The position numbers were made by a program, and so were the translations under genes. A DNA stretch of 57,068 bases, the filler included, from Sphacelaria rigidula (lineage: Eukaryota), in the NCBI GenBank assembly GCA_964200075.2. It is 3 parts of 3 records of this genome, joined end to end, with 100 filler letters (N's around TTAATTAATTAA, not from the genome) between each part and the next. Parts side by side here need not be neighbours in the genome. Positions count along the whole stretch, not along the records: positions 38,115 to 57,068 come from CAXNAA020000759.1; 2 more parts are not named here. One strand, written 5' to 3'. This document shows positions 12,010 through 57,068 of this stretch, piece by piece (the stretch's first letter is position 1; the number at the start of each line of letters is the position of its first letter). The notes under the pieces are model-generated. The model worked only from the letters and a program-made list of their open reading frames with translations. It ran no database searches and was not told the origin of the DNA.

Positions 12010-12457
12010 CCTATGTGGTCCGCGCAACGGCAAGGCGGCGCATTCCTTCGTGGTAAGTGTATCTGCCGTAGTACTGCGTGCTAGTTGTCGCTTGTTCTCC
12101 CTTACTATTTTCATACATGTTAACTGCATGTAGTATACTTGAGTTCTACTATAAGCAGGTAATGGAAAGCCGCAAAAATAACGGGGAGCGAGCAAGCAGG
12201 AATTACAAACCTTAGTCCCACGCAGATTGTTGGCTAGGACACACAGTCGTAGGCACGTTTTGGGGGAGGCAAGGTGTAAAATTTTCCTCATCCATAGTTG
12301 GTAAGATAGTTACCTCTCCAACCCTCTTCTAGGCAGAAAAACGCATCGAAGAGGCCTACAAAAAAGGGTAGGGCGATGTGAATGCTCTATCCGGCACAAG
12401 AGGTGAATAACCACAAGCGTATGTTGAGGACTCACCACCTTTGCACAAATATATCGT

Positions 12458-24409: not shown

Positions 24410-24970
24410 TTAATTCGGGAAGGTTGGGATTGACATCATCGGTACGCTTGCTGCTGATGGCGGGGGCGAGTCGTGTCGAGCCAGGAAAAAATGGGACTCG
24501 TTGGTCATGGCCTCCGTCCATCCCCGCAGGTCCGTGTTGATCATTTTCTCGAACATTGCAGATTTTTCCTCGACCAGCAGAGTGCGGGTCATCGCATACA
24601 TGCAAAATGTCTGCAATACCTTGTCGAACGCCGCTTCCAGCTGGGATATGCGCTGGTTGCATGTGGCCGACTCTCCGTCAGCCTGAGGGTGGCTAGCCTC
24701 AAGGCCGGCACATAACAGTTTTGCTTTTCCGTGCTTCACCAGCGCCAGGCGGTCGACGATCGAGATCGACGTTGACGAGTAATATCGGCTACGCGAACTG
24801 AAATCCATCACGTTAAACCCACCCATTTCCGACAGGGTGGTGAAGACGTTGATAGTCACGAGAAGGATGTCGCCCATAAGGCCCTGCAGTTCGCTCTTTG
24901 TCATTGCGTGTGGCATTCTCCCGCGCAACTCCCAGATCACACGCGTTTTTGTTTCCTTCCAAGCGTCCAC
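24410..24970 (-). pseudogene. Putative gag-like ORF1 fragment of the YR retrotransposon
   Basis: 186-codon open frame upstream of RT on the same strand. Assigned by position only; no motif recognised. Confidence 0.5.
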
Positions 24971-32064: not shown

Positions 32065-33615
32065 ACGCCTAGCGTTTGCACCCATACAAGTTGCACCGCG
32101 AGAGCATCATATGGCATAGCGGGTAGCAGAAAGACGGAGTTCTGCGCCGCACACGCCCGAGCGGGCATGGTCGATGTGAGGAGCAAGCGGTGCAGCAAGG
32201 AGGGCTGCTCCACGTGCCCATCGTTCGGTGCAGCCGGTAGCAGAAAGGCGGAGTTCTGCGCCGCACATGCCCGGGCGGGCATGGTCTATGTGAGGAGCAA
32301 GCGGTGCAGCAAGAAGGGCTGCTACAAACACCCATTGTTCGGTGCAGCCGGTAGCAGAAAGACGGAGTTCTGCGCCGCACACGCCCGAGCGGGCATGGTC
32401 GACGTGAAGAACAAGCGGTGCAGCGAGGAGGGCTGCTCCATGTGCCCATCGTTCGGTGCAGCCGGTAGCAGGAAGACGGAATACTGCGCCGCACACGCTC
32501 GAGCGGGCATGGTCTATGTGAGGAACAAGCGGTGCAGCAAGGAGGGCTGCTCCACGTGCCCATCGTTTGGTGCAGCCGGTAGCAGAAAAGCGGAGTTCTG
32601 CGCCGCACACGCCCGAGCGGGCATGGTCGATGTGAAAAAGAAGCTGTGCGGCGAGGAGGGCTGCTCCAAACACCCATCGTTTGGTGCAGCCGGTAGCAGA
32701 AAGACGGAGTTCTGCGCCGCACACGCCCGGGCGGGCATGGTCTATGTGAGGACCAAGCGGTGCAGCGAGGACGGCTGCTCCAAACACCCATCGTTCGGTG
32801 CAGCGGGTAGCGGGAAGACGGAGTACTGCGCCGCACACGCCCGAGCAGGCATGGTCGATGTGGCAAGCAAGCAGTGCGGCAAAGAGGGTTGCTCTGCAAA
32901 AGCATCGTTTAGCGCAGCCGGTAGCGGGAATGCGGAGTTCTGCGCTGGACACGGTCGAGCAGGTGCGGTTCACGTGAAAAACGAGCAGCGCGGCAAGGAT
33001 GGCCACCCGAACCAGTCATCGGTCGATTCAGAAACGTTCAGCAAGGTTGAGTCCTGTGCCGCACACGCCCGAGCGGGCACGGTCGACGTGGCTCGAAGGC
33101 GGTGTAGGAAGGAAGGTGCAGCCGGTCTCACCACGAATGATGGTGGTTGTGGCGCTGAGTCTCGTCCCAGCTTGCGTGTCATCTGTGTTGGGCGACGGGG
33201 TGCAAATTTCATGACCACGTCGCCTTTCCCCTTTGGACAGCCCTCCGGCGCGGTGGCAGCAGATAGGCTTACTCTAGGTGAGTCAGAGATGCACATGAAT
33301 ATCAAAATGGAAACGACTGTTGCGCCTGCGCGAGGTTTCGAGGGGCTACGAAGTAGCGGACTAGTTGCTGCGCGATCCAGCAGTTGCGACAGCATAAGCG
33401 ACTCCAGCAGGACTACCAGAAGCAGTAGCATCACGAATGGAAGGAACACGAAGCGGGTCCGCCGGACGGCCCAGGTGCTGCCGGCACTTGATGTGGCAGC
33501 CGGGGATGATGTGATGTCTGAAGGCGACAGAACTGACGTGAAGTTAGAACTGAATGTGTCCGCCCCGTCTCGCCGTGTCCGCGGCCTCATCCCGCCTGCG
33601 AAAGATATATATTAA
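32065..33615 (+). CDS. EsV-1-7 cysteine-rich repeat protein (8 intact and 1 degenerate 38-aa repeats, low-complexity tail)
   Basis: Tandem 114-bp units such as CSKEGCSTCPSFGAAGSRKAEFCAAHARAGMVYVRSKR (C-x4-C-x16-C-x2-H...GMV.V), the EsV-1-7 pattern. The frame is open 31930-33615. The start is uncertain: ACG at 32065 precedes repeat 1 and the first in-frame ATG is at 32167. Confidence 0.88.
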   Translation, partial: TPSVCTHTSCTARASYGIAGSRKTEFCAAHARAGMVDVRSKRCSKEGCSTCPSFGAAGSRKAEFCAAHARAGMVYVRSKRCSKKGCYKHPLFGAAGSRKTEFCAAHARAGMVDVKNKRCSEEGCSMCPSFGAAGSRKTEYCAAHARAGMVYVRNKRCSKEGCSTCPSFGAAGSRKAEFCAAHARAGMVDVKKKLCGEEGCSKHPSFGAAGSRKTEFCAAHARAGMVYVRTKRCSEDGCSKHPSFGAAGSGKTEYCAAHARAGMVDVASKQCGKEGCSAKASFSAAGSGNAEFCAGHGRAGAVHVKNEQRGKDGHPNQSSVDSETFSKVESCAAHARAGTVDVARRRCRKEGAAGLTTNDGGCGAESRPSLRVICVGRRGANFMTTSPFPFGQPSGAVAADRLTLGESEMHMNIKMETTVAPARGFEGLRSSGLVAARSSSCDSISDSSRTTRSSSITNGRNTKRVRRTAQVLPALDVAAGDDVMSEGDRTDVKLELNVSAPSRRVRGLIPPAKDIY

Positions 33616-38114: not shown

Positions 38115-38550
38115 GATCAAAGCCACTCTCAATCGTATCATCTACTCTCAATCTCACGAAAACACTGTTGTTTGTCGGCTGGCCCAGCAGGTAGCCCCTC
38201 GGGAAAAACAAACCCCCGCCTCTCTCATCTACCCCAGTGCGACCACGAGAAGAAAGAAGAACCGCCACTGAAAAAATAAGGGTCTACGCTTTCCCGACTA
38301 CTATAAGTACTGAAATCCAGTTGCTTGAGGGGCCACTGCTCTTGGGATTTAGTTGGGAGGGCTCGCTGGGATATTTACGGCAGGCCTATCTCTTGTTACG
38401 ACCGGCGTTTTGTGCAACGCACCCGTTGTGCATCGAGACATACTCCTTGTGTATATGCGACATACAGCGTGGTGGGGCAAGTCCCGTATCGGGTGGGGCG
38501 CCGGCGCCTTGCGGGCCGACTCGTGCTACTGACAGTCGGTAGTGTGTATT

Positions 38551-38911
38551 GTGTGTTGTCGTCCCCTTTATTGTGGGCACCAGTCTACACCAGTCTACAC
38601 CTTTCGGTATATGTGGGCGCAGCAGCCGGGGTTACACAGGAGGGGAGTCAACATAGGATTTTTTGTTTTGTTTTGTTTGCAATACCCAGCTTTTCTTCTG
38701 CGGTGCGTGACTTTTATTCTTTATCGCGACAGGGGTTCAGCGATTCCTTTCCCTCGTCGACCGTGAAGTCGAATGTGGTGAGCCCATGGCATAGACGCTC
38801 TCCACTGTTGGGCGTGGTGTGAGAAAAGATTCAACATCGCTCCGGGAATCGAACCCCCCTCCTCAACCTTCAGCAGGGAACTAGGTTACCAACTGAGCCA
38901 CCGGGGCGACC
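38551..38911 (-). mobile_element. tRNA-derived SINE, copy 2
   Basis: Same head, with B box GGTTCGATTCCC, and the same body. Confidence 0.8.
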
Positions 38912-40141
38912 GGTAGTACAGATGTAAACTGCGTGCTGCCAATATATATATATATATATATATATATCTTGCTGAATAACCAGACCTCTATGCTGTCTGA
39001 AATGGGCCTCAACTATATGAGTGCTTTTGCCGCATGTTTCCCTCGATGGTAACGTTCGACGATAGGCGCGTAGGCGCTTGCTCCATGGAGCCGCCCTCGC
39101 TTGGATATTGTCACCTTACAACCAGCACCATCTTCCGCTCCTGAAACGCTAAATATAGTTTATTATCTTCCATTGGTATCATAATGTACTATCATATTCT
39201 AATATAGTCCAGCACTCCACACAGGGTTTATCAGTATAATAACGACGACAAAAGGCTGGAGGCGCCTCAGCTGGAGAAGGACAGGTGGGGGCTGTAGGAG
39301 AGAGGAGCACAGTCGAACCGTGGGAACCATTGCAAGGGCGAAAAATTCACAACATCACCTCAGCTGGATTAGCTCCGTAGGTGAGGACGATCGAAGCACC
39401 CGAAGCTTCACTTTGGTGGGCAATCCCGTGTATGGCACGAAAAACTACATGTATACGATAACGTGTACAGAGTACATCCTTGTTTTCTCGAATTCTACAG
39501 CAAACATGTCATGGAAAGATGTGTGATTGGAGACATTTCGTCGATCTCTTCGGATGAACGATGCAGAAAATAATCCGTGGGGGGTGTTATACACCGTCAC
39601 CTCGTGTGACATGATTGGCGCGACCTATTTGCAGGTGGAGAGTGCAAAAAAGACCGTGCAGGTCGCCAACGCCTCCAGAACCAAATCCACGACAAACCCA
39701 ATCTTGAATCGAAATACTGACACGAAACAACAGTCAGTCACACTCCACAGCACTCCACAGCAGGGCGGTAAGGAAAGGGTCTTGTCGTATGGCACGAGAC
39801 CACACATGTCGGCGGCGATGAGCTCTCTGCTCGATATTGAAGCACCAACAGTCGTCTTGTTTCGTTGGCTGGCCAAGCACCGCGCATGCTCGACTTTATG
39901 GGTGCTCTGACGACACGGACTGTATGCAGCGTCCATCAGCTGCTTACTCGTGATGATACCTCCATATCATCGTGTTGCACTGCTGCTGTTGTATAAGACC
40001 CCACGCTGTCTGTACACTGTGTCTGTGTACTGCGCATGCTAGCTAGGTGGCAGCACGAGTAGCGGGAGTCTTCCTGTATCGTACCACTCGTCAACTGCAC
40101 ATAACACTATCTAAGCAGCAGCTCTGGTCAGTTAGCGTTAA

Positions 40142-40248
40142 CCTTTAGACCGCGATGCGGGAATACTGGAGTCCATCTGGGTCACGCACACTTTTCCAAG
40201 TGAAATTCATGCCGATTCAGCAGGTGACCTACCCTCGCGGTCAAAGGG
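40142..40248. mobile_element. piggyBac-like 107-bp MITE
   Basis: TTAA|CCTTTAGACCGCGA...TCGCGGTCAAAGGG|TTAA: TTAA on both sides with CC-initiated inverted termini. Confidence 0.75.
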
Positions 40249-43200
40249 TTAAACTGGCCGCGCCAGTGGGCCGTACCGTACCAGCGCTGTACAGCAGTAT
40301 AATGCTACTCCACTACTGTTGCGTCGTCGGTTGTCAGCTGTAAAGGGTGTATAGTCCGCACGACAGACAGCAGACAAGGGTGCTTGTAGAACGATGATGG
40401 TGCGATTTCACAAGTTCACCCCGTCCTTGGGTTATCTGCCCGGATACATCATTTCCCCGCGTGTAGGCTGCGGCGGGTGTGAACGGTTGTCACTACCCAA
40501 TCACACACACAAATAGCAGCATTACATTTGAACACTCAGCTGATGTCCCGTTGTCCATGACGCCGCAGAACCATCAAATTTGATTTGTTTTTTGAGAAAT
40601 TGCCATATGGAAATGCTTCATGAAAAAACTAGTAATTCTGCGATTCCCGGTGGTACCGAGCAGAGAACTCATCGCCGTCTGCGTTCATGGTATCCTTCCC
40701 TACAACGAAATAAAGATGTTCGGTGTTACCTGCAGCTCTGCTGTGAGCTGCTGCTGATTACGTCTGTTGTTTCGTGTGTCCGGGGCGTGCCTCACGAGCA
40801 CTTTGTTTTCGATCGAAAAAGTGCGGTCGAAATGTTTGTCGCCGATCTGATGGGTTCAACGCATTTATGCTCCCAGAAGTCTTCATCTCAAAATTGCCAT
40901 TGACGGCGCGCGGAGAAGAATGCATCGAGGTGGAAAACAATCGTTTTCGATCGAAAACATGCCGTCGAAAGGCACGAAGCGGCGCGTGACTCCTATTTTA
41001 CAGACCACCACGCCAGATAACACCTGTTCACAGGACCATGCAAACCCCATCCGAATCATTCTCAGCTACCACCGCAACCCTGCAGCACAGACCACGATTT
41101 GAGCCCAGGGATAGATGCACTGCAGTAGTTTGGTTTGCTTTGTCTATTTTTGTTGGCGAAACTTGCGCATCTTTTCTCATGGTAGGGATCAGCGACGGAA
41201 TTGCGTGGTACGGTGGGCAACCGAGTTGCGTGAAGCTCATGGACAGTGCAGACAGCACAGAGCTGCATGTTGCTGAAGTCCTCTTCACGTCGCATCGCAA
41301 CTATAGAGACCTGATACTCCTTGTCCCGGGTTGTCTGCACTGCACGTTGCCCACTTCTCTTTCATATCCTCCTGAACAAAACACGTACACACGCACCCAA
41401 GACCCGGCTTGCAAGCAGTGCAGACAGTGCAGACTCTCTGTAGGCTTTTGCTTTTTACGCGCGTTTTCCCGATTTTTTTCATGTTCGAAAGAAAACATTA
41501 TGCGCCGATTTGTGCGTATTTTGGTGTATTATGCGCGACTTATGCGCCTTTTTCGCATCCTTCTTGAGGCGGTTCCTGGCGAGTTCCTGGCGACACCGCC
41601 CGTGGAACATACCTTCGGGCAAGAGAACAAAACAGCATGTTAAACATTTCGAGATTTCATTTATTTTTCATCAGTTTCACATAAACATAAAGTAGCTCAC
41701 ATAAAGCACCATATCCGATATTAGACCCGCAACAATTTTTGAAAAAATAAGACGAAAACAAACACCACGACTCCACGAGCCACTCCAGATGGAGCACTCG
41801 TGGGCAGTTACTAGCTGCTGGGCATGGAGTGCATAACCCCGTTGGAATACTGCATGCGCCAAGCCATGCGTAAAACTTGACTTTCATGCTCCTTTGCGAA
41901 GCTAAAATCTCCAAAAACGTATGTTGATATAAAAAGCGCATGTGCTAAGGGCCCTTCTTAACCCTTTTGGGACCGACCCCCCAATAGCACAGGGTTGACC
42001 CTGTGTTACTGAAATAATTAAAAATATGTCTTCGAGCGACCTGCCTACTAACTACTAGGCGAAATCTATTGACCAGACCCGAACGACCAGCGCGGGGATT
42101 GTTGGCGAGTGTAATGCCACAGCAAAGATCGTGTGGGGGCCCTTATCCCTGGCCCAGGTAAGCCTTCTCAGGTTTCCAACTGCAAGGCGGTCGGAAGTTG
42201 GTTATATGATATCACTTGCACTCAGTACAGCGTTCCCGAGTTTTCCGGTGGGTTGTTTGGGTCACAGTTCTATACTCAAACGTAGTAGTTACACTAGCAC
42301 AGGGTCGACCGGATAAACTGGGAAGGGGTGTACATGCTACAATGTGGTAATTTTCACCAGGCACGAAGTCCAGGTGGGCCGTGAAAAGACAAAAGGAGCT
42401 ACCGTCATGAATCCCGCTTATCCGTCTGCCGATGACTTGAAGTGTGCAGTTAAGATGTATGTAGTGGGCGGGGATGAAGAAGCGCGGTATATAGGCAGTT
42501 GATCTCGGTAGCTGAGAATTGCCCATAACGTGCAAGGGAGTATGCAGCGGCAGCTGCTGCTTCAGTCGGAGAGGCGTATTGTACTGCACTGTCCTATGCT
42601 GTTGTATGCATGCGCACCGCAACGCTGATACCCTTCAAAGAGAACTTGTCGCATGCAACAAAGAAGGAAGTGGCGGCCGACCCCGACCACAATGGGCCGT
42701 GTGGCCAGGTGGTGAGGACAACAGTATCCCTTTTTTCACAATCCCCTTTTGACAGGGGATTGGCCGCATGAGGACCAGTCCCGAGTCCTATCGACAAGCA
42801 GCTCTGTCCAGATTGGAACCCAGATCTGCACCCAGGCTGAGAAATGCGGCGGGTCTGGAAGTGGTCGTTAGTAGGTCTGTGTAATGCTGCAGACAAGACA
42901 CAACAAGGCAACACAGCACCTACACACCCAGCCCCGAATAAACACGCACAGAAACCCACCACTCACGCGCATTAGTTCCCCTGCTAGGCCTTGCTAATCT
43001 ACACACGATAGTTTTTGTTCGACGGAAATCCATTCTGCATTGGACGAAGGGCGGCCTCATGCGTGTCAAAAACACCGAAAACGTGTCGTTGCTGACCGTT
43101 TTGTGAGCGTGTGCTCTGCGCGCGTCTCACACAAATGGTCATTTCTCGGTGAATTCTGAACGGATTTGAGCAAGGTCACGCACAACATGCACAGCTGATG

Positions 43201-44201
43201 AGCAGCTACGGCTCGAGCTGTGTATTTTTGGTTTGCAGGGCCACCAAGTTTCTCAGGTTCAGCTCTGATTGTGTTGGGTTGTGTGGTAAGTCTTTGCATG
43301 TGCCCCTGACAACGGGACATGTATGTTGCCCTTCGAGGTGCACAGATATCCCCTTTCGAAAAGGGGATTTCAGGAAGTTTTTTCGCACTTCTTGAAATCC
43401 CCTCAATAGAGGGGATTTATGTGCACGTTAAGGGGATTTTTTCTTTGGGGGGGGTGAGGGGGGGGGTGGTATCGCAGCGACCAATCAGCGGTCGTTTGTC
43501 AACAAAGGAGATTTTGGAAAAGGGGATGATCCCCGTCGCTAAGAATAGCCCTAACTGTCACTAGTTGTAATATTTTGCAACCAGTTCAGAACTCTACTCA
43601 TGGGTGTCTCGCCATTTGGACATCACGTAGTATGGTCATCCCCTTTGCGCTGAATCGAGGTTCTCCCACGCCACACGATGAAATCTAGCTCGACCACTAT
43701 CATCGTTGCTGCAAAAAAACGCAAGCGCGCAATACAAAACGGTAACCTGGTTGTCTAGCATACGCAGTGAGTGGCGTGGTTTACAGCGTCATCGCCAACC
43801 AACGCCAACCCCATGGGGGCGGGGAGGTGGTCTAGATCCCAGCAATGAGACTGCCAGACTTGATGGGACTTCGCTAAGTGGGGTTCTTTTCACGTGTCGA
43901 AAATGGCGATCCCGTGCAGAAGTGCCGGTCACGAGAGGAAAAGCTTGAACATAGGTATAAAAATGTTTGCCGTGTACGTGCCTTGCGTGTCGTCTTCACT
44001 CGTCGTACCAAGCTTTCAAAACCCTTGAAATTTGTATCCACGCGGTCAAACTTGATGAACGGTCACCTAGTAGTAGTAACAATTTTCTTCCGACCATCGG
44101 CAGACTTACTCTATCAGACAGTTTCGACGGGGGATTAATGTCACTAGCGTTCTGTCTTCTTCACTCGAGAGCGATGCCTTGCCAGTCGATTGCACCGGAC
44201 T

Positions 44202-44452
44202 TTTTTTTTTTTTTCCTTGCTGAAAGGAGGAAACCCAACCCCCAACACTTACCCCGCAAGCGACCGCAGGCGATCGCTAGCGAGTTCGTGTGCCGATTTC
44301 CTGAAGGCTCGGCTAGACCACCTCGCGGCAGTCATGTGGGGAAGGCGCCTCGGGCGGTGACTCAAGGCAGTGTGGGGGGGATGCTGCCACTAAAACCCCC
44401 TGTCAACTTGGCATAGTACATGCGCCGCCCTACTCTTAAGAGCTTTGGCCCT
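44202..44452 (-). repeat. A-tailed interspersed repeat, copy 2
   Basis: Begins with a T-run on the plus strand; CGCAGGCGATCGCTAGCGAGTTCGTGTGCC matches copy 1 inverted. Confidence 0.8.
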
Positions 44453-44967
44453 CAAGTACACTGGACTGTTCTCTCGTACTACAATGCTTCTGTCTTCAAC
44501 GTGGCCGTACTGTCTGTCTGTACAGTATGGTTGTCAAAATGGCGTGAGTAGTTGCATCTCGTAAACGTAGGTCTGACCAGGTATGACTCCCAACTTGTGC
44601 GGCGCAGGCTTTGCTTGCGAGCTTCTCGAATTTCTTCTACAGCATTCCGCGTATGTGCGGCGTAGGCTTTGATGACTCAGGCAAAGTGCTTTGTTTTGAC
44701 GTTCGTTTGCCGTATGCCGGGTTCAAGTCTTACATGATCATCTCGAAACCGCGTACGTCGATCACATGACCCTTCTCGACCCCGACGGCAAAAGCGAAAA
44801 CCTGGCATCGCCATTCTTTAACCGGGTCGAGAACATGGACACTTGCAAGCGACACCCGTATCGACGCTCTTGTGAAAACGCCTGGCTACTGTCACCACGG
44901 AAGGCGTCCGCATCAGATGCCCAGTACAGGGTCCCGGGCAGATATCGCGACGGTTTTTAGTGTGAAG

Positions 44968-45019
<52 letters not shown>

Positions 45020-45020
45020 C
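44968..45020 (+). repeat. (ACA)n microsatellite, ~17 units
   Basis: Direct read. Confidence 0.95.
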
Positions 45021-45864
45021 TTAGCAGTCTAAGCTTTTCGACTTTACATTTGTTTTGTCGCACTTCGAACCCCTCCCCTTTCTCTGGACGAGTTCGTGGT
45101 CTGTCACAAGCGATCAACTCGTGTCTCCCCGGTACACGCCTTGCTCTTTGGTCTCGCGGATTGGATCATGACCAGCACTCCCTCACCGCGTCAACTCACG
45201 TCAAACATACTCAGTAAACTGCTGTATGTACTCGCGTTCTCACCTTTTCCACGGTGGAAGTCAGATACTACGGAGAAACACCCGGCACATCGGGAATCGA
45301 ACCCTCCTTCTCTTCACCTCAATGGCGGCTGTTGGACCATCACCCAACCGGGGCGCGGCGGCTATATCCCATTCTCGGCTGATTTGCACCTATTCTCAGG
45401 TGCCCCCTTCTTGTCGGACATGTTCAAGCTATTGAGGTAGTGGTGTTGTGTCCGAAATGGAAGAGCAACGCCGCCGGGTGGACACGCATTCGAATCGACC
45501 TAACACGCACAGTGCGACTTGAACAGTATGATGTTCCGACACCCACTGTTGGGTCAAAAAGCACAACACACGTATGCGTTGCGGTGAACTCGCGCTACTC
45601 GAACGGGGTCGCATTACAAATCCCGAAATCAACAACACAAGCCTACTTTTGGTGTCAGGCCTGAACAGGTGAATCTGTGCGGCCTCGGAATCGTGATCCG
45701 ATAGTACACTTCCAAAACTATCAGGCCATGATTATTGCTCTGCGAGGTCGGCGTTTCTCACGACGCAAACCCGCACTATTCAGAGAAAAATGGATGGGAA
45801 AATATTGATCAGAAAAAATGGCTGTTGCGATGCTGTCCTCGATGTGGGAATTTGGGAAATGACT

Positions 45865-46218
45865 GGTCGCCCCGGTGGCTCAGTTGGTTACCTCGAAACC
45901 CTCTGACGTTTGGATCGTGGGTTCAAATCTCGGAGCGATCTGGGATTTTTTCTCACATCATGCCCAACAGTGTAGAGCGAATATGTCGTGGGTACACAAC
46001 ATGCGGCCTGACGGTCGACGAGGGAAAGGGACTGCTTAACCCCTCTCGCAATAAAAAAAAAAGGCAAGCCCGGCAGAAGGAAGGTGGGGTACTAGAACAA
46101 ACAAAAAAGAAGGCTCGAGTGTTGACCTTCCTCCCGTGTGACCCCGGCTGGTGCGTCCACATACACCGAAAGGTGTAGCCCGGCGTCCAGAATAGATGGG
46201 ACGACAACACACACACAC
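45865..46218 (+). mobile_element. tRNA-derived SINE, copy 3
   Basis: GGTCGCCCCGGTGGCTCAGTTGG...GGTTCAAATCTC; body shared with the other copies; ends GACAAC(AC)n. Confidence 0.82.
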
Positions 46219-46663
46219 TGTACGATGTGGTGGATGATATTCGCGATGTCACTATGGTGACACTGTATGATGGAACAGTAAGTAGTCGCATCTTCAGCAG
46301 TCATCGCGTAGGTACATGAAGGAGCTCCAAATTTAAGAGTCGCCCAAAGTCAGGCGGGGTACGACGGATGAGTCCAGTCTGTGCCGCAAAGTTTGATCCA
46401 AGCGCTGGCTCGACCGTTGCGTGTGTGCGCCTTCGGTTTCCCGTGCCAAACTCGCAAGTCATCCTATCCAAAAATAAAGGACACGGCGCGTCGTACACCA
46501 GTCCAGTTTGTGGTTGTGCTTGATCATTATTTCGTCACCCGGATCAGTTGAGACTGAAGAAAACCTGAGGGATCCCAGTGGTGACGGCGGACTCCCCGCG
46601 AAAACAAAAAAAAAACAGAACAGAACAAGAAGAAAAAATAAAGTGTGGGAAATGCGAATATAC

Positions 46664-46798
46664 CACACCCTGGACAAAAGATTATTTTGTAAAACAATGT
46701 ACTGCGTACAGTATGGAATTTATTGTCTGTGGCAGTTGGCGCAACAGTCGATACTGTAAGTACACTTTTTTGCTGTGTATTCTATTGTCCAGGGTGTG
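46664..46798. mobile_element. 135-bp MITE (family D) with 8-bp target-site duplication
   Basis: TIRs CACACCCTGGACAA / TTGTCCAGGGTGTG flanked by GAATATAC at 46656-46663 and 46799-46806. Confidence 0.85.
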
Positions 46799-49700
46799 GA
46801 ATATACAATGGTACCATCCTGCTTTGTTTTGCAATCGAAACATTTCATACTTTTGTACTCTCTCGAATCCGCCCGTCACATACTTCAAGGCACTAAAATG
46901 TAGAAATATGTCGGGCAAACAACACTTTAAAATGGGGTTCCATGGAATCTGAACGCACGTTCTTAACGTTGTAGCATGTGTTGGGCGTTTCATCTTGTCT
47001 TCGTATTGTCTTTGTGCAGTGCTGTAGGGGCATTGCATCCTCCGGTATTCGCACTATACGGTTTCGGCGATTCGCGATAAAGTACCGCGCGGTCAGGGTG
47101 TTCCACGGCGAGGGGTACGGTAGGGTACAAGGGGCTCGCGGCACGTTCTGCACGGTAAAGGAGAAGAGCAAACTGGTGCGGTGCCGCGGTCGATTTGTTT
47201 CATTGCCGATGGTTGCACGTTTTGACTGAGTCCCTCATGGGATCCAGCCGTGATCACGTGATGGGCGTACTGGAGACAAAACATTTTCAGAACACTCGCT
47301 GAAGAAAAACGATGAAGGAGGGAAACAGAAAAAAAAAGAGAAAACAGAACAACAAAGTCGACTAAGAAATAACAGCGGTTGATTGGGTGCTGCGGTTTGC
47401 AAACTTGAGCGATGCCGCGGATGATATCACCCCCAATACTGCAATGAACTGCGGTTGTTGTCCGGCGGTAGAGCGCCGAGGATAGCTCTGGATTGTTCTT
47501 TTGGCATGTGCGATAGTGTTCCGAGAATGGGTGGGTGCGTTCAAAGGTCAAAAATGGCTAACTCGGTGGAAACGGAAACGTACATGATCGCTCGAAGTAT
47601 AAATGTGAGGGGCTGTCACGCAGCCATCTTCAATCTGGGCACAAGTCCCGCACCGCCATCTTCGAACCAGACATAAAAAAATAACGAACATAGCACATTA
47701 CCATATCTGAATTGGGCACAAGTCTCCCGTGACCATCATTCGAACCAGAAAAATGAGCGAGTGAAAGGCACTTGTAGCGTTCGTTCTATTGACCTTGGGT
47801 ATGTCTGATTTTTCAGCGGAGCTGGGTCACTCGAGGACCAGGTGATGTGCGACAATCACGAGAGGAGACAGTAAAAAACATCGATACTTCATTCAAAATG
47901 TGCTCCTTCTAAGCCTTGTAGCAAGTCGCCACGACGCCCAACACACGATATTACGAAATGATTTCCATTCGGAACAAGCTATGCGTTGCGCCGTGTATTG
48001 CAACAGCTCGAAAGATGCGTGGGTGAAGTTTCGTTCCGCGGTCAGCTTTATTCTCTCTTTCGATCAATCAGGCCTCAGAAGACGTAGATTTGCTGATATG
48101 AACCAGCGATAATTTGGCCGAAGCGTGCAAACATCCTTTTTCGGATGAAGACTGCTGTACCATCGAGACGTGCCATAGCTCACTGTGGAAGTCTTGAGCA
48201 ACCCACTGGATCGTTCGTTGCTCAGGTCTTCCTGGTGCCGAAATGGTGAAAAAACAATCCTGGCTACCATGTCTTACTTGACCATGACTATCGCAAAACG
48301 GGGAGTACTCGCTTAACGTTCACGAGTACTCTTGCAGAGTCGCACGAATCGCTGCTGCTTCTTCAATACCGAACATATTTCTGTCAAAATAACGTACACC
48401 GCGCCCAGCTATTAGCGGCCGAGCACCTCCATACCTATGAACGCCATGTTTGTCCCGGTAGGTGCATATCTTTCAGTTCCATCAAAATTAAAGAGCAACC
48501 GTCCTGTGCGTTCTCAAACTGGACCCTGTGACCGCTGAGGTGGGCTATATCCAAGTCTTGTACTCATTTCGCAAGCGAAATGATGCGTACTCACCAGATC
48601 ACCCGCTCTTCGTGGCCAAAGGCTCGTACAGAGGTACTCAGGGCTCCATTTGCGAGAGCTGATTCGGGGCATTATCGCGTGCGGGCGGCTTCGCTCGTTC
48701 CACAGCGGTGCTGTTGCCCCAGTCTGTCCGTCCGTCTGATTACTTTCCGCATGGATAGTACAATCTGGTGATGCTGTGTTGGTTATTCCGGGGCCGTTCC
48801 GCCAACGAATAGATTGGTCATTCTTGGACATACGCGATTCTCTCGTGTCCAGCTCATTGTAACACCGCCCAGCACCTCTGCGCTCAGAGAACCACACGCT
48901 GTGGTGAGAGGGTGCGATTTGTGAGAAACTTGAGCAGTAGAAGTTGTGTATGATTTCGCCGTGACACACGCTCAATCTTGCTTGAAATTCTGGTGATGGA
49001 ACCCGACGCCGTGGTTAGGTGGAGAGATAGGGCGGTGAGCTGGCAGCCCTGGCCAATTAAGTCTCAACTCGCCGCCGGCATGGCCAACACATCGACAATT
49101 TTCCAGTTGACTGGGGAAACGGTTTGACTGGGAAAAATCGGAGAGGGGAGGCGAGGCCGCAAGCCCTCTTCCCCCCTGACTTGTGAAGCGGTGCTCCGTC
49201 TCGAAAGGGATGCGGGGTCAACGGTCAAATGACGAAGGAAAGCAGCAAATGAGAATGCCCCTCCCCCCCGGCTGGTGAGGGGTTCTCGGGGAAGCGCCGC
49301 CGGAGGCAAGAAACATTGCGGTATTTGGGTTGTTTTCATTATTTTTGGATGTGCAGTGAAACGACAAACCTTGGCATATGTATCGACTATCTCACTTCGA
49401 GGTGTAGTGAGCACGTGGTGCATCATGTTTAATACGCTATTCATCATGAAATCGGCAATTGACAAGTGGCGATTGAGGTTTGGTGTTTGGCAGTCAATTC
49501 CGCATCAAGCGTCCCGCCGTGTGTAGGTCACAACTCCTTTCACATCCTCTATTTTCCTCATTCGACGGACCAGCTGTCGACGTACACGTTATACGGCCGA
49601 AAATGACAGAAAACTGCACGACTACGAGGTACCAACGAAGCGAACGGGACGAAAATAAGCAGAGAAAACACCCAAGGTAGTCAGCTGGTGACTGGCCCAC

Positions 49701-51947
49701 GGCCAATCCGTTCCTTATGTGCCATGGTACCACCACACAACGCCAGACCTCTTGTGTACAAGTCGACCGAAATATGGAATACGAAGCATATAGTTGTGCA
49801 CCGCTGCCCCCCGCGTCATTCACGCAATCAATTTCCGTCGACGCCTTCGAAGCGCCCTACGTCTCAACTGATACCCCATATTCCTCTGTAACTGTGAAGC
49901 GCAGACCTCAATTGTGTAGTCAAGTTGTACATAATGGCGTAAGTATCTTTGTTTTCAATTCTCCATAGTAAAATTGGTATGAAAATAGCCGGTAACGGTA
50001 AACCCCGAATAAACTGGATAAACTGGCGCCCTCGTGGCCAGTTCCATTATTACTCCAGTTCCATTTCAATTGACAGTATAGACTGGTCCAGTTCACAGCC
50101 CTATGGACACGTGTATTACACACGCGCTCTGCGGGGCGGCGGGGTGGGGGGGGGGTGCGCAAAACCGTCAGCTACAGATGCAGTACGTACTCCTCTGGCC
50201 ACATTTGATGGTACGTCCCCCTTGGTCGAAGCCGTGACTGGCTTATCGTTTTCCTGTCCTGTGTATAGTATGTGAATGCATGTTGCCATCATGAAATTAT
50301 CATGACTGAGTTGTTCACCGAGCAGTTTAGGGCTTTCCAGAAACCTCGTGGTCTAGACTGCAGCGTGCGATTGCCCTCGGCAGGGAAGCACCGTACAACG
50401 CCAGGATATACTCGACACGAGAGATCGGTTTGTGTTTCCCCCCCCGTCGTATTGGTGAAGGAGCCGCAGAGAACACACTCAATCATCAAATAGCTCTCCC
50501 GAAAACGCCGACCAGTTGGTGCCGGGTTTGGACGTTGTGTTCGAGGAATGGCTATCGGACTGGAAAATAATCGTCTCTGCGGTTGCCATGGTCGGAGAAG
50601 ATGGGGTAGCGCGTCCCCCCGTGGCATGATGTACCGTAGGCAGTCAGTGCCCGCCTTGAAACGGTTGGAAGGGCACCTAGGAGGAGGAATGACGACATAA
50701 GGTGTACCTCTCGGAAGCTGGCCTAACTAGGGTACCGTGGGTTTCGATGAACGGGCGCTTTTTCGCGCATGACTGTATTCGGCAAGAACATGTGAGTGGT
50801 TCCCCCGTATTTTTTCAAGAAGCGGGTGCAGCGCATATTCCCACGTGATGGGCCTTGAAGATTTCGGGTGAAAACTAATTTACGATGCGTTGTTCCGAGT
50901 CTGCATGTTTAGTCCACAATAGTGCCTCTTTAGGCGCGAAAAAACATGAAGATGTACCTCCTCCAGACTGAGGTCCATGAAACAAGAAGCTGGCCCGACC
51001 TTTGCCCCTCCGGCCTCTTTGCACACCTGCCCGTTTGTTGAAACTTTTCCCGGCGGTACCGAACGCATGAATTGTGTCTCTACCGTGCGTCTAGGCGTTG
51101 TGACGAGCCTATTATGTCATGTGGCCTGAGTATGCCGTCACAACTGTAATGCGTGAAAAGACCGCGTGCTTGGGGGACCGCATCGTAGTTCAAAACACCT
51201 CAGAATCAACGTTTCTCAAAACTTGACCCTAACCCCAACGCTAGCCCTAACCATAGGGGTGTTTGAACTCCGATGCGATTCCCTAAGCACGCGATCCTCT
51301 CACGCATTACAAAAACGATGTTCACGGTTTTGGTGTTCGTGTTTTTGTTTCAAGCCAACTGTCCCGTTTCTGTTTCATTCCTGGTGTACGCCACATGGAA
51401 TTTGTTTTCAATCTTCTGAAAGAGACCACGAAGCTGCGAGGAGCGTGTGCGGTCGCTGCACACCTCGAAACCTGCTCAGTTTTTTAACCAGGCTGCTCGG
51501 ATCCCAACAACAGCTTCGGTAGGTTATTGTTGAGCGGTTTTCAGGTCTTGCTAGAACATGCTTCAGCGAAATCTCGCAGCGCGTCCATGAAGATGTGATG
51601 GATGCAACCATGGATGTTTTTCGTCCAAACCTTTCTTCTCGTCTCGTGCATATTAACTTGTTGTGAACATCAATGAATATTGGATGCCATGTAAAGGTTT
51701 GCAGGGCTCCTTCGAGGCCTGGGCAGTATGTTAATACCTGTGTGAGTCACTTCATCAAGAGTGCTGGTGAAGTGAATGCCAGTAGCTCCCGTTCTTCCGC
51801 TTCATGTGCAGCAATAGGAATGTCAGTCGTTCTACGAAGAATTCAAAGTAGCTTTTCTCTGTGACCTATACGCGAACTCTCCCGCTTCATTCATCGAAGG
51901 TGCTACTGTGAGAAGAGTGCTCCCGACGAACCACGAGGAGGGGGCTG

Positions 51948-54104
51948 ATGGCCGACGTGACATCGAAAGAGTGCAGCAACAAGGGCTGCTCCAAGCGCCC
52001 ATCGTACGGTGTACCGGGTTACAAGGCAGAGTTTTGCTCCAAGCATGCCCGAGCGGGAATGGTAACTATGGCGCGCAGGATGTGCGGCAACAAGGGCTGC
52101 TTCAAGCATCCGTTATTTGGTGCAGCGGGAAGCAAGAAGGCGGAGTTCTGCTCCAAGCATGCCAGTGCAGGAATGGTGGATGTGGTGCACAAGAAGTGCG
52201 GCGATGAGGGTTGCTCGAGAAATCCATCGTACGGTGTGGCGGGTACCAAGACGCCCGAGTTCTGCTCACAGCATGCCACCGTGGGACTGGTGTATGTCTT
52301 GATACAGTGCAGAGACGAGAGCTGCTCAAGACGACCATCTTATGGTGTAGCGGGAAGCAAGGAGCCACTGTTTTGCTCGGAGCACGCCCGGGTGGGAATG
52401 GTGAACCTCAAACACAAGACGTGCGGCGACGAAGGCTGCACCAGGCGGCCGTCCTATGGTGTAGCGGGAAGCAAGAATGAGGAGTTCTGCTCGAAGCATG
52501 CTACAGCGGGAATGGTGAATATCAAACACAAGAAGTGCGACGGCGAAGGCTGCTCCAAGGCACCGTCTTTTGGTACGGCGGGAAGCAAGGAGCCGCAGTT
52601 CTGCTCGAAGCACGCCGAAGCGGGAATGGTGAGCGTGGTGGGTAAGAGATGCGAAGACGCGGGCTGCTCGACGCGTTCATCGTATGGTGTGCCGGGAAGC
52701 AAGGAAGTGATGTTCTGCTCCAAGCACGCCAAGGCAGGAATGATACGCGTGGTGCGCAAGAAGTGCGGCAGCAAGGGATGCTTGAAGCATCCGTCGTTTG
52801 GTGCAACGGGAAGCGAGAAGGCGGAGTACTGCTCCCAGCATGCCAGGACGGGGATGGTAAATATCGTGGATAAGAAGTGCGGCGACGAGGGCTGCTCCAA
52901 GCATCCGTTGTTTGGTGTAGCAGGAACCGAGCAGGCTGAATTCTGCTCCCAGCATGCCAGGGCGGGGATGGTAAATATCGTGGATAAGAAGTGCGGCGAC
53001 GAGGGCTGCTCCAAGCATCCGTTGTTTGGTGTAGCAGGAACCGAGCAGGCTGAGTTCTGCTCCCAGCATGCCAGGGCGGGAATGGTGAATGTCGTGGATA
53101 AGAAGTGCCGCCATGAGCGCTGCTCCACACGCCCGTCGTATGGATCAGCGGGAACCAAGAGGGCGGAGTTCTGCTCTAAGCACGCTAGGGTGGGACTGGT
53201 GAATGTGATGCAGAGAAAGTGCGGCGACGAAGGTTGCTACACGCGTCCGTCGTTTGGTGCCAAGGGAAGCAAGAAGTCGGAGTTCTGCTCTCAGCATGCC
53301 ACTTCGGGGATGGTGAGTTTCAGGAGCAAGACGGGCGGTGTAAAAGGCATGTCAAGGTCGGCGCCTTCTGGCGCTGCGGGGAGGAAGGAGCGGCAGCTCC
53401 GCTCCAAGCATGCCAGGGCGAGCATGGTAAATGTAGTCACACAGAGGTCCAGCGCAGAGACATGCCCCAGGTTGGATGTCTTGAAGTGGCACAACCCTGA
53501 CGAGGCAAAGCCCTGCCGACAGGATTTTACCAAACATGACGCAGCGATCATGAACGACACCTCAGAGCTTACTGCATGGGTGGCTGCTTTCGGCCGTAGT
53601 CCGACGGAGGTCGGTGGAGAAAGCCTTGCTGGCGTGCAAGGAATCAAGCGCAAGAGCGCAGCATACTCGGCTTCTAGTGAGAGCAACAGTGTCGGTGCTC
53701 GCCGGAGTACGCGCACAGGTCCCAGACGGGGGGGTACACCGCCACCGTTGCTGTCACTACAGCTACTCTCAGGGGCTGATGGTGAAGTATCCGTAGAGGC
53801 AAGGACAGGGGCAGGGGTGAAGGTAGAGCAGGCAGACCCTTCGGCTGCACGCGGTGGCGACGGGGTGAGGCAGTGTAGCGAGCAGGTCACCCCTCCGCGT
53901 AGATGGGACAGCGTAGATGGTGGTACTAGCTTTAGCAACAGCAGTCCTACTTTGATTACGAGGAAGCCATGTCGTTTGTCAGCTGCTGTGTCTGTGTGCG
54001 TCGGTGCGTCTGATAACGTGGAAACTGAAGGGGCTAAGGAGAATCAAAACGGAAAGTTGAAGCTAGAAATGCCTCGGTCTCCTCTTTGGATACCGGACAG
54101 ATGA
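51948..54104 (+). CDS. EsV-1-7 cysteine-rich repeat protein, 718 aa (12 intact and 1 degenerate repeats, low-complexity tail)
   Basis: Uninterrupted ATG-to-TGA ORF with 37-38-aa units such as CGDEGCSKHPLFGVAGTEQAEFCSQHARAGMVNIVDKK. Confidence 0.93.
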   Translation: MADVTSKECSNKGCSKRPSYGVPGYKAEFCSKHARAGMVTMARRMCGNKGCFKHPLFGAAGSKKAEFCSKHASAGMVDVVHKKCGDEGCSRNPSYGVAGTKTPEFCSQHATVGLVYVLIQCRDESCSRRPSYGVAGSKEPLFCSEHARVGMVNLKHKTCGDEGCTRRPSYGVAGSKNEEFCSKHATAGMVNIKHKKCDGEGCSKAPSFGTAGSKEPQFCSKHAEAGMVSVVGKRCEDAGCSTRSSYGVPGSKEVMFCSKHAKAGMIRVVRKKCGSKGCLKHPSFGATGSEKAEYCSQHARTGMVNIVDKKCGDEGCSKHPLFGVAGTEQAEFCSQHARAGMVNIVDKKCGDEGCSKHPLFGVAGTEQAEFCSQHARAGMVNVVDKKCRHERCSTRPSYGSAGTKRAEFCSKHARVGLVNVMQRKCGDEGCYTRPSFGAKGSKKSEFCSQHATSGMVSFRSKTGGVKGMSRSAPSGAAGRKERQLRSKHARASMVNVVTQRSSAETCPRLDVLKWHNPDEAKPCRQDFTKHDAAIMNDTSELTAWVAAFGRSPTEVGGESLAGVQGIKRKSAAYSASSESNSVGARRSTRTGPRRGGTPPPLLSLQLLSGADGEVSVEARTGAGVKVEQADPSAARGGDGVRQCSEQVTPPRRWDSVDGGTSFSNSSPTLITRKPCRLSAAVSVCVGASDNVETEGAKENQNGKLKLEMPRSPLWIPDR

Positions 54105-55432
54105 TGGATGAGGCTCTGCCATATGCCAATTTGAAGGTTTAGATTCCCCAGGGAGTGTTCTGGCGTGCGCTAGGATTAATGCCCATTAATTTCGACATTA
54201 TTGTTTCCGAGATCTGAGAGTATTTTGGATTTTTCGCGCTGCGCGTTCAGACTACTCCGAAAACGAAGCGGCTTGTTTTCTCTGCTTACTTTCATTTTCG
54301 GAGGTCTAATCAGTCCGCATGGCAACGCAGCACTTCGGAAAGCTGCCCTGTGTATCCCGTGGCGCTCGGGAGCGTTTGAGAGTTATCAGGTGTCTCATCA
54401 GTCCCGAAACGCTCGGGGATCTTCAAAAAACAGTGTCTATATGATGATTGGCTTAGTCATCAGTTCCAACCGTCAGCAATCTCAAACGAGAGAACGTTGG
54501 CAAGGGTGATTTTCCATTCTGTCGAAGCGAAGGAGTTCGTAACTTTGTGGGGTTCTGGTAGCCCGATGCTACATTTTACCAAGTTTTGGTCGAAATGGGG
54601 TCATCATGGGTGCGATGGCCACCTCGTTTTGTGGCGATGTGCCACTAATTGGCTAGAAGCGGGGATGAAACGTGATGAACGTCGCACTTTGTGTGGAGTG
54701 GTTCACTGTCGCACCATTGCCATCAGCAGCCTTGCCAGATGGCCCGGGTGTGGTGATGGTGCAGCCATGTGGCGTCGGAAGCGGGTTGATGACTGGCGCA
54801 ACGACTCACCAAGTAGCCCTCCTCAGCGCGTATGGTGTGCTGGTTAATGAAAATACCGAATAACACCGTATTGTACTGCCGTTCTATCTCAACGATTGAA
54901 CGGCTCTCTCTTTTTCTGGTCCCGAGATCGACCACCATGGTTGTCCGATTATGCCGAGTCGATTCCTGCTTAGCTGCTATCCGTTCGCCGGATCAACTGT
55001 ATTCTTTTCGATTCGTCGCGATCTACACAAACCTCAGGTCTCGTTACGCTCTGATCCTCCACTTCCAGTACGAGCCAGCACGTAGAGCCGGCACAGAAAC
55101 ATGCACACATGCACACTTGATTACACACGGCACGCATACGAGCACACTGCGCGGTGTCCCTGCATCTTTTGCTGAGGTTGCTGAGTCGCTGCAGTCGACT
55201 GATTTCTGGGACAAAGCGTCAGCTGACAGTAGTTTGTTTTTACATCCACGCCGCCGAGTGCTGAAATTGCGCGGCGCACCTGCCCTGCAATCGTTATGCT
55301 AGTGATTTAGCGCCGAGGGCAGAAAGATATGACACGATGCAGCTTGACCGCCTCATACCAACCTCATTATACCACATCATCTCGGGCCTGTATTCAACAT
55401 GAATTGGCATGGGTAGCGGCGCTGGAATAATG

Positions 55433-55856
55433 ACAGGATCTTACAAATCGGGGATGGATCTTTTACTGCAGATGAAAAACCCGGAGAAGTAAAATCTTCG
55501 TATCCACACCAAATATTCGAAATATGGTTCCATTTCTCCACCCACTGATAGCTATTGACAACTGCTATACGCCATAGAAATTTGAACTTCGATCACCGAA
55601 ATGTTGAGGCCCTACGTGGAAAACCAATTTCGGAACCATTTTGGCGTCCGTTCGGACACCAATGTTCTTCACCTAGGATCCCAACATTTCGGTGATCGCG
55701 ATCCAAATTTCTATGGCGTGTAGCAGTTGTCAATAGCTAAACGTAGGTGAAAGGATGGGACCATAGTTCGAAGATTTGATGTGGATACGAAGATTTTAAT
55801 TCTCCAGGTTTCTCATCTCCAAAAAATATCCATCCCCGATTTGTGAAATCCCGTGT
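55433..55856. mobile_element. Foldback MITE family B, copy 3
   Basis: Near-palindromic: ACAAATCGGGGATGGAT...ATCCATCCCCGATTTGT, TTCGTATCCAC/GTGGATACGAA and GATCACCGAAATGTTG/CAACATTTCGGTGATC. Confidence 0.85.
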
Positions 55857-57068
55857 TTATGCGGTTACACACAACAGTGGATCCTGAAAAATGGGGTCGA
55901 TCCCCAAAGTCAGGTTCAAGTGGCATATGGTATTTGCAGAGGTACTACGAAACACTCGCACAGAGCGGAACCATCTTTCCCCCCAGAACTCTGCTGCAGT
56001 GAATCAGTTGTGGCCAGGTGCACCGAATGTATGCGGTGTACACGCGTGTTGATGACGATATCACAAGAGATATGAGCAACGACATAGAGGAAGCTCCTCG
56101 CTCGTGGCCTTTGTCTGTCCTCGCTCGGCGATTACCAATCGCTCGAGAGACTGGCGTCATGGATGGTACCAGCATGTACTCAATTTCTTATGTGCCGGTG
56201 GACATGTTATTACGTTGCTGCGCACAGCCGCCCAACGAACATCGAGGTGCGGAGAGATTTCCTCTCTTCATGTCTGTGAAGCTCACCAATGCGAAGATCG
56301 ATTTCTCTCTGCCTCTCTTCCTGCACAGGACGCGTCCCTGTGCGCTGACAAACGTGTCGTTGACGAACGAGGCAATGTTCCCGTGACCGCTACTACTGTT
56401 CTCTGCCACACACATGCCAGCAAGGGCAGTGCTGGCGCAATAACAACAGATCCAATTTGAACTTGGGGGTGTTATTCGTCGTTGGTTTTACCCGATAGGT
56501 AACTATCTCGGTGCCCGACCACGAGAGCGTACCACAGGCCAGTTGAGATGTGTGTGTGTGAGAGAGAGAAAGCAAACACTTGTGGAGACTCTCTTGATAT
56601 GCGGAGTGAGAAAATATCAATATGGTGGTGACCTAGCTGTTGCTAGCGTGGTGCAGAGGGGTGCGTCAATGCTGCAATCTGGAGCTTTCGTTGTTCTACT
56701 CTACTGACTACCGTCTGCAGAGAGGTCACCCACCGTAACATGAACTGCACTTCGCAACAGCCATAGAAACAAAACGGTTCGATTTTCCGTACTATGTCCA
56801 CATGATTAAAATGACTCTTGTTACCTAAGGATCTGTGGCTTCCCGGTCCCTTCGCCAGGTATGAAAGAACGACGACACAGCTTTTGCAAGTGAAGGTAAC
56901 ACTCACGGGGGGACAGAGGTTTTCTCCTCAGTAAAAGTCCCCATTTTCCCATCTGCAAACCGTTTCATGCTCGTTGCTTTCCAAAATGATTTTGAACTAA
57001 CAGCAAATTGTGCGAATTGAGGTTTACCTCTGAATTGAGGCTCAAGTGGGCAACCCGACTTGCGAACA

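Follow-up and report, generated by a model that had tools for sequence, protein, structure and literature searches.

Candidate SUMO-acceptor motifs in the C-terminal tail of an EsV-1-7 repeat protein of Sphacelaria rigidula

The window considered here is a stretch of 57,068 nt from the brown alga Sphacelaria rigidula, joined from three parts of three records (positions 38,115-57,068 come from CAXNAA020000759.1, and adjacent parts are not necessarily neighbours in the genome). At 51948-54104 on the forward strand it holds a genuine gene that belongs to the EsV-1-7 zinc-repeat family known from brown algae. The uninterrupted open reading frame (ORF) encodes a protein of 718 aa (P0001), in which the Pfam family PF19114 (EsV_1_7_cys) is matched in 12 stretches with E 1.8e-175 and 568.9 bits, above the gathering threshold (cutoff of 25), and the family membership proposed in the initial annotation is borne out. 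Behind its repeats this protein has a tail with a short basic cluster and two motifs of the form psi-K-x-E (psi standing for a hydrophobic residue), the consensus of acceptor sites for the small ubiquitin-like modifier (SUMO). Our main finding is that among the tails of related proteins, one large cluster of conserved tails set apart, psi-K-x-E is specifically over-represented, with strict dependence on psi, K and E. We regard P0001 as an ordinary member of the family with a conserved and probably regulatory tail module, apparently new to the literature searched. The features on which this rests are as follows.

51948..54104, forward strand: coding sequence of P0001, a 718-aa EsV-1-7 family protein (ORF, PF19114, ends shared with relatives, colinear contig over 53067-54773)
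53643..53657, forward strand: basic cluster IKRKS (K567, R568, K569), with the family consensus G-x-KRKR (coordinates by arithmetic from KRK at 53646)
53817..53828, forward strand: motif A, VKVE (K625), candidate SUMO acceptor about 95 aa before the C-terminus (conservation)
54057..54068, forward strand: motif B, LKLE (K705), 15 aa from the C-terminus and followed by MPRSP, candidate SUMO acceptor (conservation)

Conservation and enrichment of the tail motifs

In the AlphaFold2 model of P0001, residues 456-718 mostly have a predicted local distance difference test (pLDDT) score below 55, except at about 491-500 within a decayed repeat unit, which is consistent with a disordered C-terminal tail of about 220 aa. 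The segments that flank motifs A and B score below 50 (for motif A, residues 615-623 and 630-650), with block means of 41-55. When the tail alone (aa 455-718) was compared with 5.8 billion proteins, no match at E <= 0.001 was found among 4344 candidates, and tail homology was seen only when the tails of full-length relatives were aligned.

Fifteen tails, namely that of P0001 and those of 14 relatives mostly from Sphacelaria rigidula, form the tail family of the first gene. Their overall identity is low, and the only fully conserved columns (15/15) are R568 in the basic cluster and K625 and E627 in motif A. K567 is kept in 14/15 and V626 in 13/15, and in the columns of motif B we find V in 12/15, K in 14/15 and L in 13/15. 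P0004 has VKID at this place, while P0001, P0011 and P0026 share a two-residue KL insertion (VKLKLE) that still presents LKLE. Judged from these alignments, selection appears to keep almost nothing in the tail but the basic KRK(R) cluster and the two [V/I/L/M]-K-x-E islands. The coordinates that the initial annotation gave for VKVE and LKLE proved exact. Its basic cluster holds as a feature of the family (KR in 14-15/15, and 5.9x enrichment as described below), and is weakened in P0001 itself to KRK-S: the fourth position is R in 13/15 of the tails and S570 in P0001.

The window has a second gene of the same family, which the initial annotation had compared with the first.

32065..33615, forward strand: paralogous EsV-1-7 gene with a tail of the second type (Pfam, regular expression, unit model)

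Its ORF (31930/32065-33615) encodes 8 units and one decayed unit, with no in-frame ATG ahead of the first unit. It had been called unlinked; by window coordinates it precedes the first gene by about 18 kb, in the same orientation. The tail motifs were found as described, IKME at 33301-33312, TKRVRR at 33448-33465 (KRVRR from 33451) and VKLE at 33538-33549, and so was the dissimilarity of the two tails, which BLASTP cannot align (E 2.0). The second tail aligns instead with the P0047/P0072/P0089 type, where a basic cluster NTKR[LV]R stands between the two motifs; a cluster of six tails (P0038, P0047, P0071, P0072, P0084 and P0089) is of this type. By these alignments both old paralogue types retain the same three tail elements in different order, as the initial annotation had noticed. 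The 8 units of this gene (32077-32988) also form a two-unit higher-order repeat, in which position 33 alternates between D and Y and positions 8-9 between TC/MC-type and KH-type residues, a pattern that suggests recent duplication of unit pairs.

How widely are these motifs spread among the relatives? A word-seeded search with P0001 returned 140 proteins at E <= 0.001, and among the 120 listed the best named matches belong to Sphacelaria rigidula, reaching 54% identity across 60% of the query; Ectocarpus, Pylaiella and Scytosiphon account for others. When 1.84 billion representatives were searched exhaustively, 6524 proteins passed the same threshold; the window's own protein is absent from both collections. 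In 243 pooled proteins the matches to a hidden Markov model (HMM) of the repeat unit were masked and the sequence past the last match was taken as the tail. This gave 231 tails of at least 40 aa, which were clustered by BLAST at E < 1e-4. One cluster contains 134 of them and is described in the last section.

For the single genes, two strict psi-K-x-E motifs per tail have P=0.0074 in the first and P=0.0024 in the second (20,000 composition-preserving shuffles), and under a loose definition of the motif P is 0.089 and 0.033, respectively. In the first set, which comprises 113 tails, psi-K-x-E occurs 64 times against 19.8+-4.4 expected, and 19 tails carry at least two against 2.4 expected; 0/1000 shuffles reached either count, and the controls psiRxE, inverted ExKpsi, psiKxQ and KpsixE were flat. 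The cluster of 15 tails around the first gene has 28 motifs against 1.4 expected, and the cluster of six with the second gene's tail type has 9 against 0.5.

The same result was obtained with one tail per BLAST-unlinked cluster, drawn from the 58 clusters other than the large one (20 draws x 100 shuffles). Here psi-K-x-E was counted 35.2 times against 5.3 expected (6.6x, mean z 13), and 26.9 of the 58 tails carried it against 4.9 expected. Seven control motifs gave 1.20x (psiKxD), 0.86x (psiRxE), 0.81x (ExKpsi), 1.33x (KpsixE), 1.03x (psiKxQ), 1.11x (psiExK) and 0.98x (smallKxE). Basic clusters were enriched as well, K[KR].[KR] by 5.9x and four basic residues in five by 5.0x. With the clusters of both window genes removed, the remaining 56 clusters have 33 motifs against 5.09+-2.21 expected, a count reached in 0/2000 shuffles. 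The motif is present in 26/56 tails and falls within the last 40 aa in 17/56 against 1.07 expected. Of the 33 instances, 28 have V (22) or I (6) at psi; x varies widely (L5, R5, V4, A3, T3 and others), and position +4 after E is P in 7 and S in 5. For tails of the unstructured type, the comparison with shuffles that the initial annotation had proposed therefore turned out in favour of the motif (6.6x, seven flat controls).

Possible roles of the tail motifs

If the tail is kept for these elements, then we can ask: What could they do? We give roughly even chances to a protein in which a disordered tail, with a basic import cluster and two SUMO-acceptor islands, tunes the array. The basic cluster would bring about nuclear import of the EsV-1-7 protein, both psi-K-x-E islands would be recognized directly by the E2 enzyme (Ubc9-type), and K625 and K705 would be conjugated to SUMO. 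Conjugation would then switch or tune the activity of the repeat array through recruitment of a partner or co-repressor. SUMO sites in unstructured regions tune many animal and yeast transcription factors, and the consensus psi-K-x-E prefers V/I at psi. With such acceptor sites the tails share V/I at psi, the invariant K and E, any residue at x and a position in low-confidence sequence, and their motifs are often paired. P or Ser-Pro often follows (LKLEMPRSP in P0001), which recalls the synergy control and phospho-dependent variants of SUMO sites. The phosphorylation-dependent motif, psi-K-x-E-x-x-S-P, is itself not matched: in LKLEMPRSP the Ser-Pro stands at +4/+5, whereas in that motif it is one residue closer to E, and VKVEQADPSA has Pro-Ser. 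In a further difference from SUMO-site variants, the acidic residues are found ahead of motif B and not behind it. Brown algae have SUMO according to one source, which names a putative gene for it in Ectocarpus, Ec-27_001840 (PMC12678776).

Several observations weigh against SUMO conjugation or narrow its reach. The enrichment is not family-wide, as the cluster of 134 tails has 37 psi-K-x-E against 51.6 expected, and it is this cluster that leaves the 117 more distant representatives without an excess (46 against 40.6). The tail layout presented in the initial annotation as shared therefore stands for the unstructured type and not for the family as a whole; with 134/231 tails lacking enrichment, the feature belongs to a brown-alga-type subgroup. 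A strict motif is missing from 30/56 tails outside the large cluster and the two window-gene clusters, and from the tail of the best-scoring relative, P0002, and N-terminal extensions show a weak tendency of their own (8 against 4.2, P 0.06). Tails that BLAST does not link may be remote homologues, and the counts would then express conservation rather than independent gains. The four-residue basic core of a monopartite nuclear localization signal, K-K/R-x-K/R, is not matched by KRKS in P0001, and many consensus SUMO sites in any proteome are never modified. The transcript reading given in the last section is a weak hint only, because the RNA status of the runs behind it (X1, X2 and X7) was guessed. 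Finally, among the 66 instances in the two window-gene clusters x is L in 20 and V in 14, and E is followed by L in 26; the mostly hydrophobic x and +1 suggest a motif larger than the SUMO consensus.

This last pattern bears on another explanation, in which the islands do work as short linear motifs, though not as sites for SUMO. One possibility is an amphipathic docking strand psi-K-psi-E-psi, to which the co-repressor motif LxLxL of the EAR (ethylene-responsive element binding factor-associated amphiphilic repression) type is the nearest analogy; another is a lysine that takes ubiquitin, acetyl or methyl groups or serves in a degron. The alternation of hydrophobic residues in the window-gene clusters (x = L/V in 34/66, L after E in 26/66) fits a docking strand, as do the wider context [MV]K[VL]EL[AG]V[PS]SP common to both islands and the acidic residues upstream of motif B rather than downstream. 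However, outside these clusters x is diverse, and a hydrophobic residue stands at x in only 14/33 instances and at +1 in only 14/33. What the tails keep is exactly psi, K and E, with R for K at 0.86x, Q or D for E at 1.03x and 1.20x, and reordered forms flat; psi is V/I in 28/33, not L as LxLxL requires. We take this explanation to be possible, if on the unlikely side.

For the family as such, much is already in print. In three accounts, the family, its expansion, its clustering and a possible viral origin are described, and its function is given as unknown or a novel zinc finger is speculated (10.1101/2024.02.19.579948; 10.64898/2026.04.27.720984; PMC7457493), the molecular function being expressly stated as unknown in one of them (PMC7457493). 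The same texts count 2018 EsV-1-7 genes in 31 genomes, with up to 335 per species, among the largest family expansions of brown algae (10.1101/2024.02.19.579948), and the largest orthogroup of a 15-species study, which includes the developmental regulator IMMEDIATE UPRIGHT (IMM) (10.64898/2026.04.27.720984). The first gene conforms to this family (PF19114/IPR043822, known from EsV-1 gene 7 and from the brown-algal expansion including IMM) in having the same unit, C-x4-C-x16-C-x2-H-x12, in many tandem copies. It has no other passing Pfam domain, as is stated for the Ectocarpus members, none of which has one (10.64898/2026.04.27.720984). Two EsV-1-7 genes within 57 kb of joined parts are in line with the reported clustering (10.1101/2024.02.19.579948).

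The tail is what sets the first gene apart. IMM is reported to have a unique N-terminal domain and five repeats (10.1101/2024.02.19.579948), where the first gene has its C-terminal motif tail instead, and the accounts consulted deal only with repeats, expansion and expression. A full-text literature search, with Macaisne et al. 2017 and the preprint supplements outside its scope, did not find EsV-1-7 together with SUMO. A tail module made of a basic cluster and one or two SUMO-type lysine motifs provides a first concrete biochemical hypothesis for an EsV-1-7 subgroup. The family would split into at least two architectures that probably differ in how they work, one with a motif-bearing unstructured tail and one with a conserved C-terminal domain. 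The function of the tail can be approached through point mutants (K625R, K705R and the basic cluster), and CRISPR editing has reportedly been achieved in brown algae.

The repeat array and the question of a nucleic-acid reader

The array and the remnants behind it occupy the following positions.

51972..53333, forward strand: array of 12 intact units with a period of 38 aa / 114 nt (Pfam, Tandem Repeats Finder, regular expression, unit HMM)
53352..53444, forward strand: decayed 13th unit, all Cys lost, SKHARASMVNVV part retained (unit HMM, E 6e-07)
53448..53552, forward strand: probable decayed 14th unit, aa 501-535 (P0011 and P0026 retain C-x4-C at the aligned place; coordinates by arithmetic)

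By regular expression, P0001 has exactly 12 C-x4-C-x15/16-C-x2-H units, the first with x15 and the remaining 11 with x16. The residues after the second Cys are SKR, FKH, SRN, SRR, TRR, SKA, STR, LKH, SKH, SKH, STR and YTR, and both the count and the tripeptides agree with the initial annotation. Tandem Repeats Finder gives a period of 114 nt with 11.7 copies at 51970-53301. A unit HMM made from 11 of the P0001 units has 13 domain matches in the protein, the last being the decayed unit at 53352-53444, and judging from the two aligned relatives a further decayed unit probably follows; the description of a 12-unit array was correct for the intact units and incomplete beyond them. The predicted metal-ligand columns (Cys3His) are invariant across all intact units, and a six-frame scan of the window found no units beyond those of the two genes.

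The AlphaFold2 model of P0001, built on a 98-row alignment, reaches pLDDT 82-95 at residues 270-455 and has lower-confidence stretches elsewhere in the array; a three-unit model from a 14-row window-only alignment came out at pLDDT 45.7 and was unusable. For the whole 718-aa model, as distinct from a single unit, the best Foldseek match is an ArfGAP zinc finger (E 2.6) and the best VIA-align score is Z 3.3; modules of the RING, B-box and ZZ kinds score Z 2-3. No significant fold match, including any DNA-binding fold, was obtained for this model by either program, and a sequence comparison of P0001 with PDB gave 0 matches.

The initial annotation went further and saw in the residues after the second Cys a possible specificity code. 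In P0001 the entropy of positions 7-9 is 1.5-1.7 bits, and that of positions 19, 36, 20 and 28 is 2.0-2.6 bits. We also surveyed 557 distinct units from 109 proteins over the 38 positions of the unit. Position 9 ranks second (3.6 bits) and position 7 fifth (3.5 bits), position 8 is conserved (K in 297/557), and positions 2-4, 14-15, 25, 28-29 and 35-36 are equally variable; variability is spread over five patches. Within P0001 and the second gene the entropy is spread over positions 2-4, 7-9, 14-15, 19-20, 28-29 and 33-36. The ratio of nonsynonymous to synonymous differences per column (pN/pS, a crude Nei-Gojobori count) is at most 1.25, with no clear excess. The unit is a fixed scaffold with several variable patches and without a confined code. 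As position 8 is conserved, variability is spread and pN/pS does not exceed 1.25, the specificity code was not upheld; the per-position check likewise gave no signal of positive selection, and the structural one no significant fold match for the whole model.

Could the array nevertheless be a programmable reader of nucleic acids with variable specificity, which silences viruses or transposons in a SUMO-dependent way after the manner of Krüppel-associated box (KRAB) zinc fingers or transcription activator-like effectors (TALE)? Such a reader would be compatible with the SUMO explanation of the tail. It shares with KRAB zinc-finger and TALE arrays, by analogy only, long tandem arrays of small units in an expanded and clustered family, and EsV-1-7 is described as large and tandemly clustered (10.1101/2024.02.19.579948). 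Positions 7 and 9 rank fifth and second of 38 and flank the conserved K8; in the second gene the scaffold is near-invariant while positions 2-4, 7-9 and 33-36 vary; and 134/231 tails have a subthreshold or lead-level likeness to DUF2726, NERD or DUF559/Vsr, which hints at DNA. On the other hand, positions 19, 36, 20 and 28 of P0001 vary more than 7-9 and variability extends over five patches, whereas in TALE proteins it is confined to a few code residues, and no column exceeds pN/pS 1.25. The variation in the second gene is a two-unit alternating super-repeat and not independent diversification. Neither KRAB nor C2H2 domains, nor any TALE homology, were found in P0001 by Pfam at E up to 0.1, no DNA-binding fold was matched (best Foldseek E 2.6, best VIA Z 3.3), there is no relative in PDB by sequence, and no functional link of the gene to viruses or transposable elements was seen. 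With spread variability, no pN/pS excess and no fold match, the programmable reader is not supported, and we consider it doubtful.

A broader picture, drawn by analogy, would be that brown algae evolved from a virus-related module a large family of nuclear array proteins of their own, in which the conserved [V/I]-K-x-E pair recruits SUMO-dependent silencing and the arrays choose the DNA or RNA, as an independent analogue of KRAB zinc fingers; this seems to us a long shot. That the tail motifs arose by chance, or were simply inherited in a tail that drifts neutrally and has no function, is very improbable. It is true that the motif was defined after the sequence had been seen (with P 0.089 for the single gene under the loose definition) and that a single species, Sphacelaria rigidula, supplies many of the relatives. 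Against this, K and E of the motif are kept in 15/15 tails of low identity, 0/2000 shuffles match the count in the 56 clusters without either window gene, and seven composition-matched control motifs are flat.

Gene ends, distant relatives and surroundings

Both ends of the ORF are independently supported by relatives: the first unit begins at residue 9 in P0001 and in P0003 alike, and the C-terminal end ...W..DR is common to P0001, P0007 and P0009. The other three Pfam rows of P0001 have no individually passing stretch. Phe_ZIP reaches 32 bits against a cutoff of 25 by its summed score only, on a 19-residue piece inside the repeats, and CTD and P2R3B_EF-hand are under their cutoffs.

Four public sequencing runs were mapped over 50000-56500, X1 and X2 from one study, X7 from another, and X5; the library type of the runs (eight holders in all) is unknown or guessed. 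The two features that they suggest are these.

51898..51947, forward strand: 5' untranslated part of the coding exon with a probable splice acceptor (contig starts of X1, X2 and X7 and the AG; weak hint)
54105..54773, forward strand: probable 3' untranslated region (colinear contigs of X1, X2 and X7)

Runs X1, X2 and X7 cover the stretch between 51898 and about 54700-54773 at a depth of about 25-60 and have only 0-3 in unique sequence on either side, and X5 has a depth near 26 throughout, wherever the sequence is unique. The contigs of the former three all start at 51898, where an AG (51898-51899) follows a pyrimidine-rich stretch; the X5 contig passes through (51285-52147). One contig covers 53067-54773 colinearly and without gaps. 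At the 3' side the colinear contigs end at 54773 (X1), 54707 (X2) and 54683 (X7), past which their depth is 0-1 against near 26 in X5. As a weak hint, this coverage fits an mRNA with an intron in the 5' untranslated region and an unspliced coding sequence and tail, and the gene is probably transcribed.

Two hairpin-like inverted repeats flank the gene, at 51145-51311 (50-nt arms, 67 nt apart) and 55462-55826 (163-nt arms, 39 nt apart). The depth of X5 at both rises to tens to hundreds of thousands, so that they look like high-copy elements resembling miniature inverted-repeat transposable elements.

The cluster of 134 tails (relatives in the range P0029-P0157) takes in most of the distant relatives, in which the EsV-1-7 array is joined to a conserved C-terminal domain. 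These tails are lysine-rich and share their C-terminal sequence, with nearly invariant RPD, EVDExQH and RYNPD columns. The proteins, possibly of giant-virus type, have the same repeat unit as the first gene (PF19114 is matched in 60/60 scanned), and differ from it in having one conserved C-terminal domain, with no psi-K-x-E excess, in place of the unstructured motif-bearing tail. Pfam likeness of this domain is subthreshold (DUF2726 in 2/60 scanned, NERD in 1/60, DUF559 in 1/60), clusters of very-short-patch-repair endonuclease/DUF559 proteins came up as language-model leads at high score, as a lead only, and a profile of these relatives had 0 matches in PDB. From these likenesses the domain is possibly nuclease-like, and should it prove to be a nuclease, DNA would be the probable target of the arrays. 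A scan of viral contigs with the unit alignment gave 7 pattern matches and no confirmed relative.

Some domain labels on individual relatives deserve mention. A zf-MIZ label on P0052, which would have meant fusion with a SUMO E3 finger, is spurious (24.9 against 33.5 bits, inside a repeat). The Pfam model Zf_WRKY19 (PF24906) cross-matches EsV-1-7 units. In P0051 the match covers 11 residues at E 5.3e-09, while P0079 and P0086 bear Zf_WRKY19 as a precomputed label. A giant-virus Atlas cluster carries this label too, and the Zf_WRKY19 and EsV-1-7 models may stand for related motifs. P0091, from Ectocarpus sp. CCAP 1310/34, combines EsV-1-7 units with a copia-type gag domain (PF14223, E 2.7e-07), which may be a gene-model fusion or a real retrotransposon link.

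In the rest of the window, Pfam matched none of 10 neighbouring ORFs of at least 180 aa at E <= 0.01. At 18958, 19014, 38015 and 38071, in two close pairs, there are runs of 44 N each, which are masked or gap stretches (the joined parts of the window carry N filler between them). The ORF at 11716-12291 on the reverse strand has 17 Cys in a row, which corresponds to a TGC/GCA trinucleotide repeat in the DNA. At 22627-24970, also on the reverse strand, there are overlapping long ORFs, one of them resembling reverse transcriptase by eye, with no Pfam match at E <= 0.01; this is possibly a decayed retroelement.

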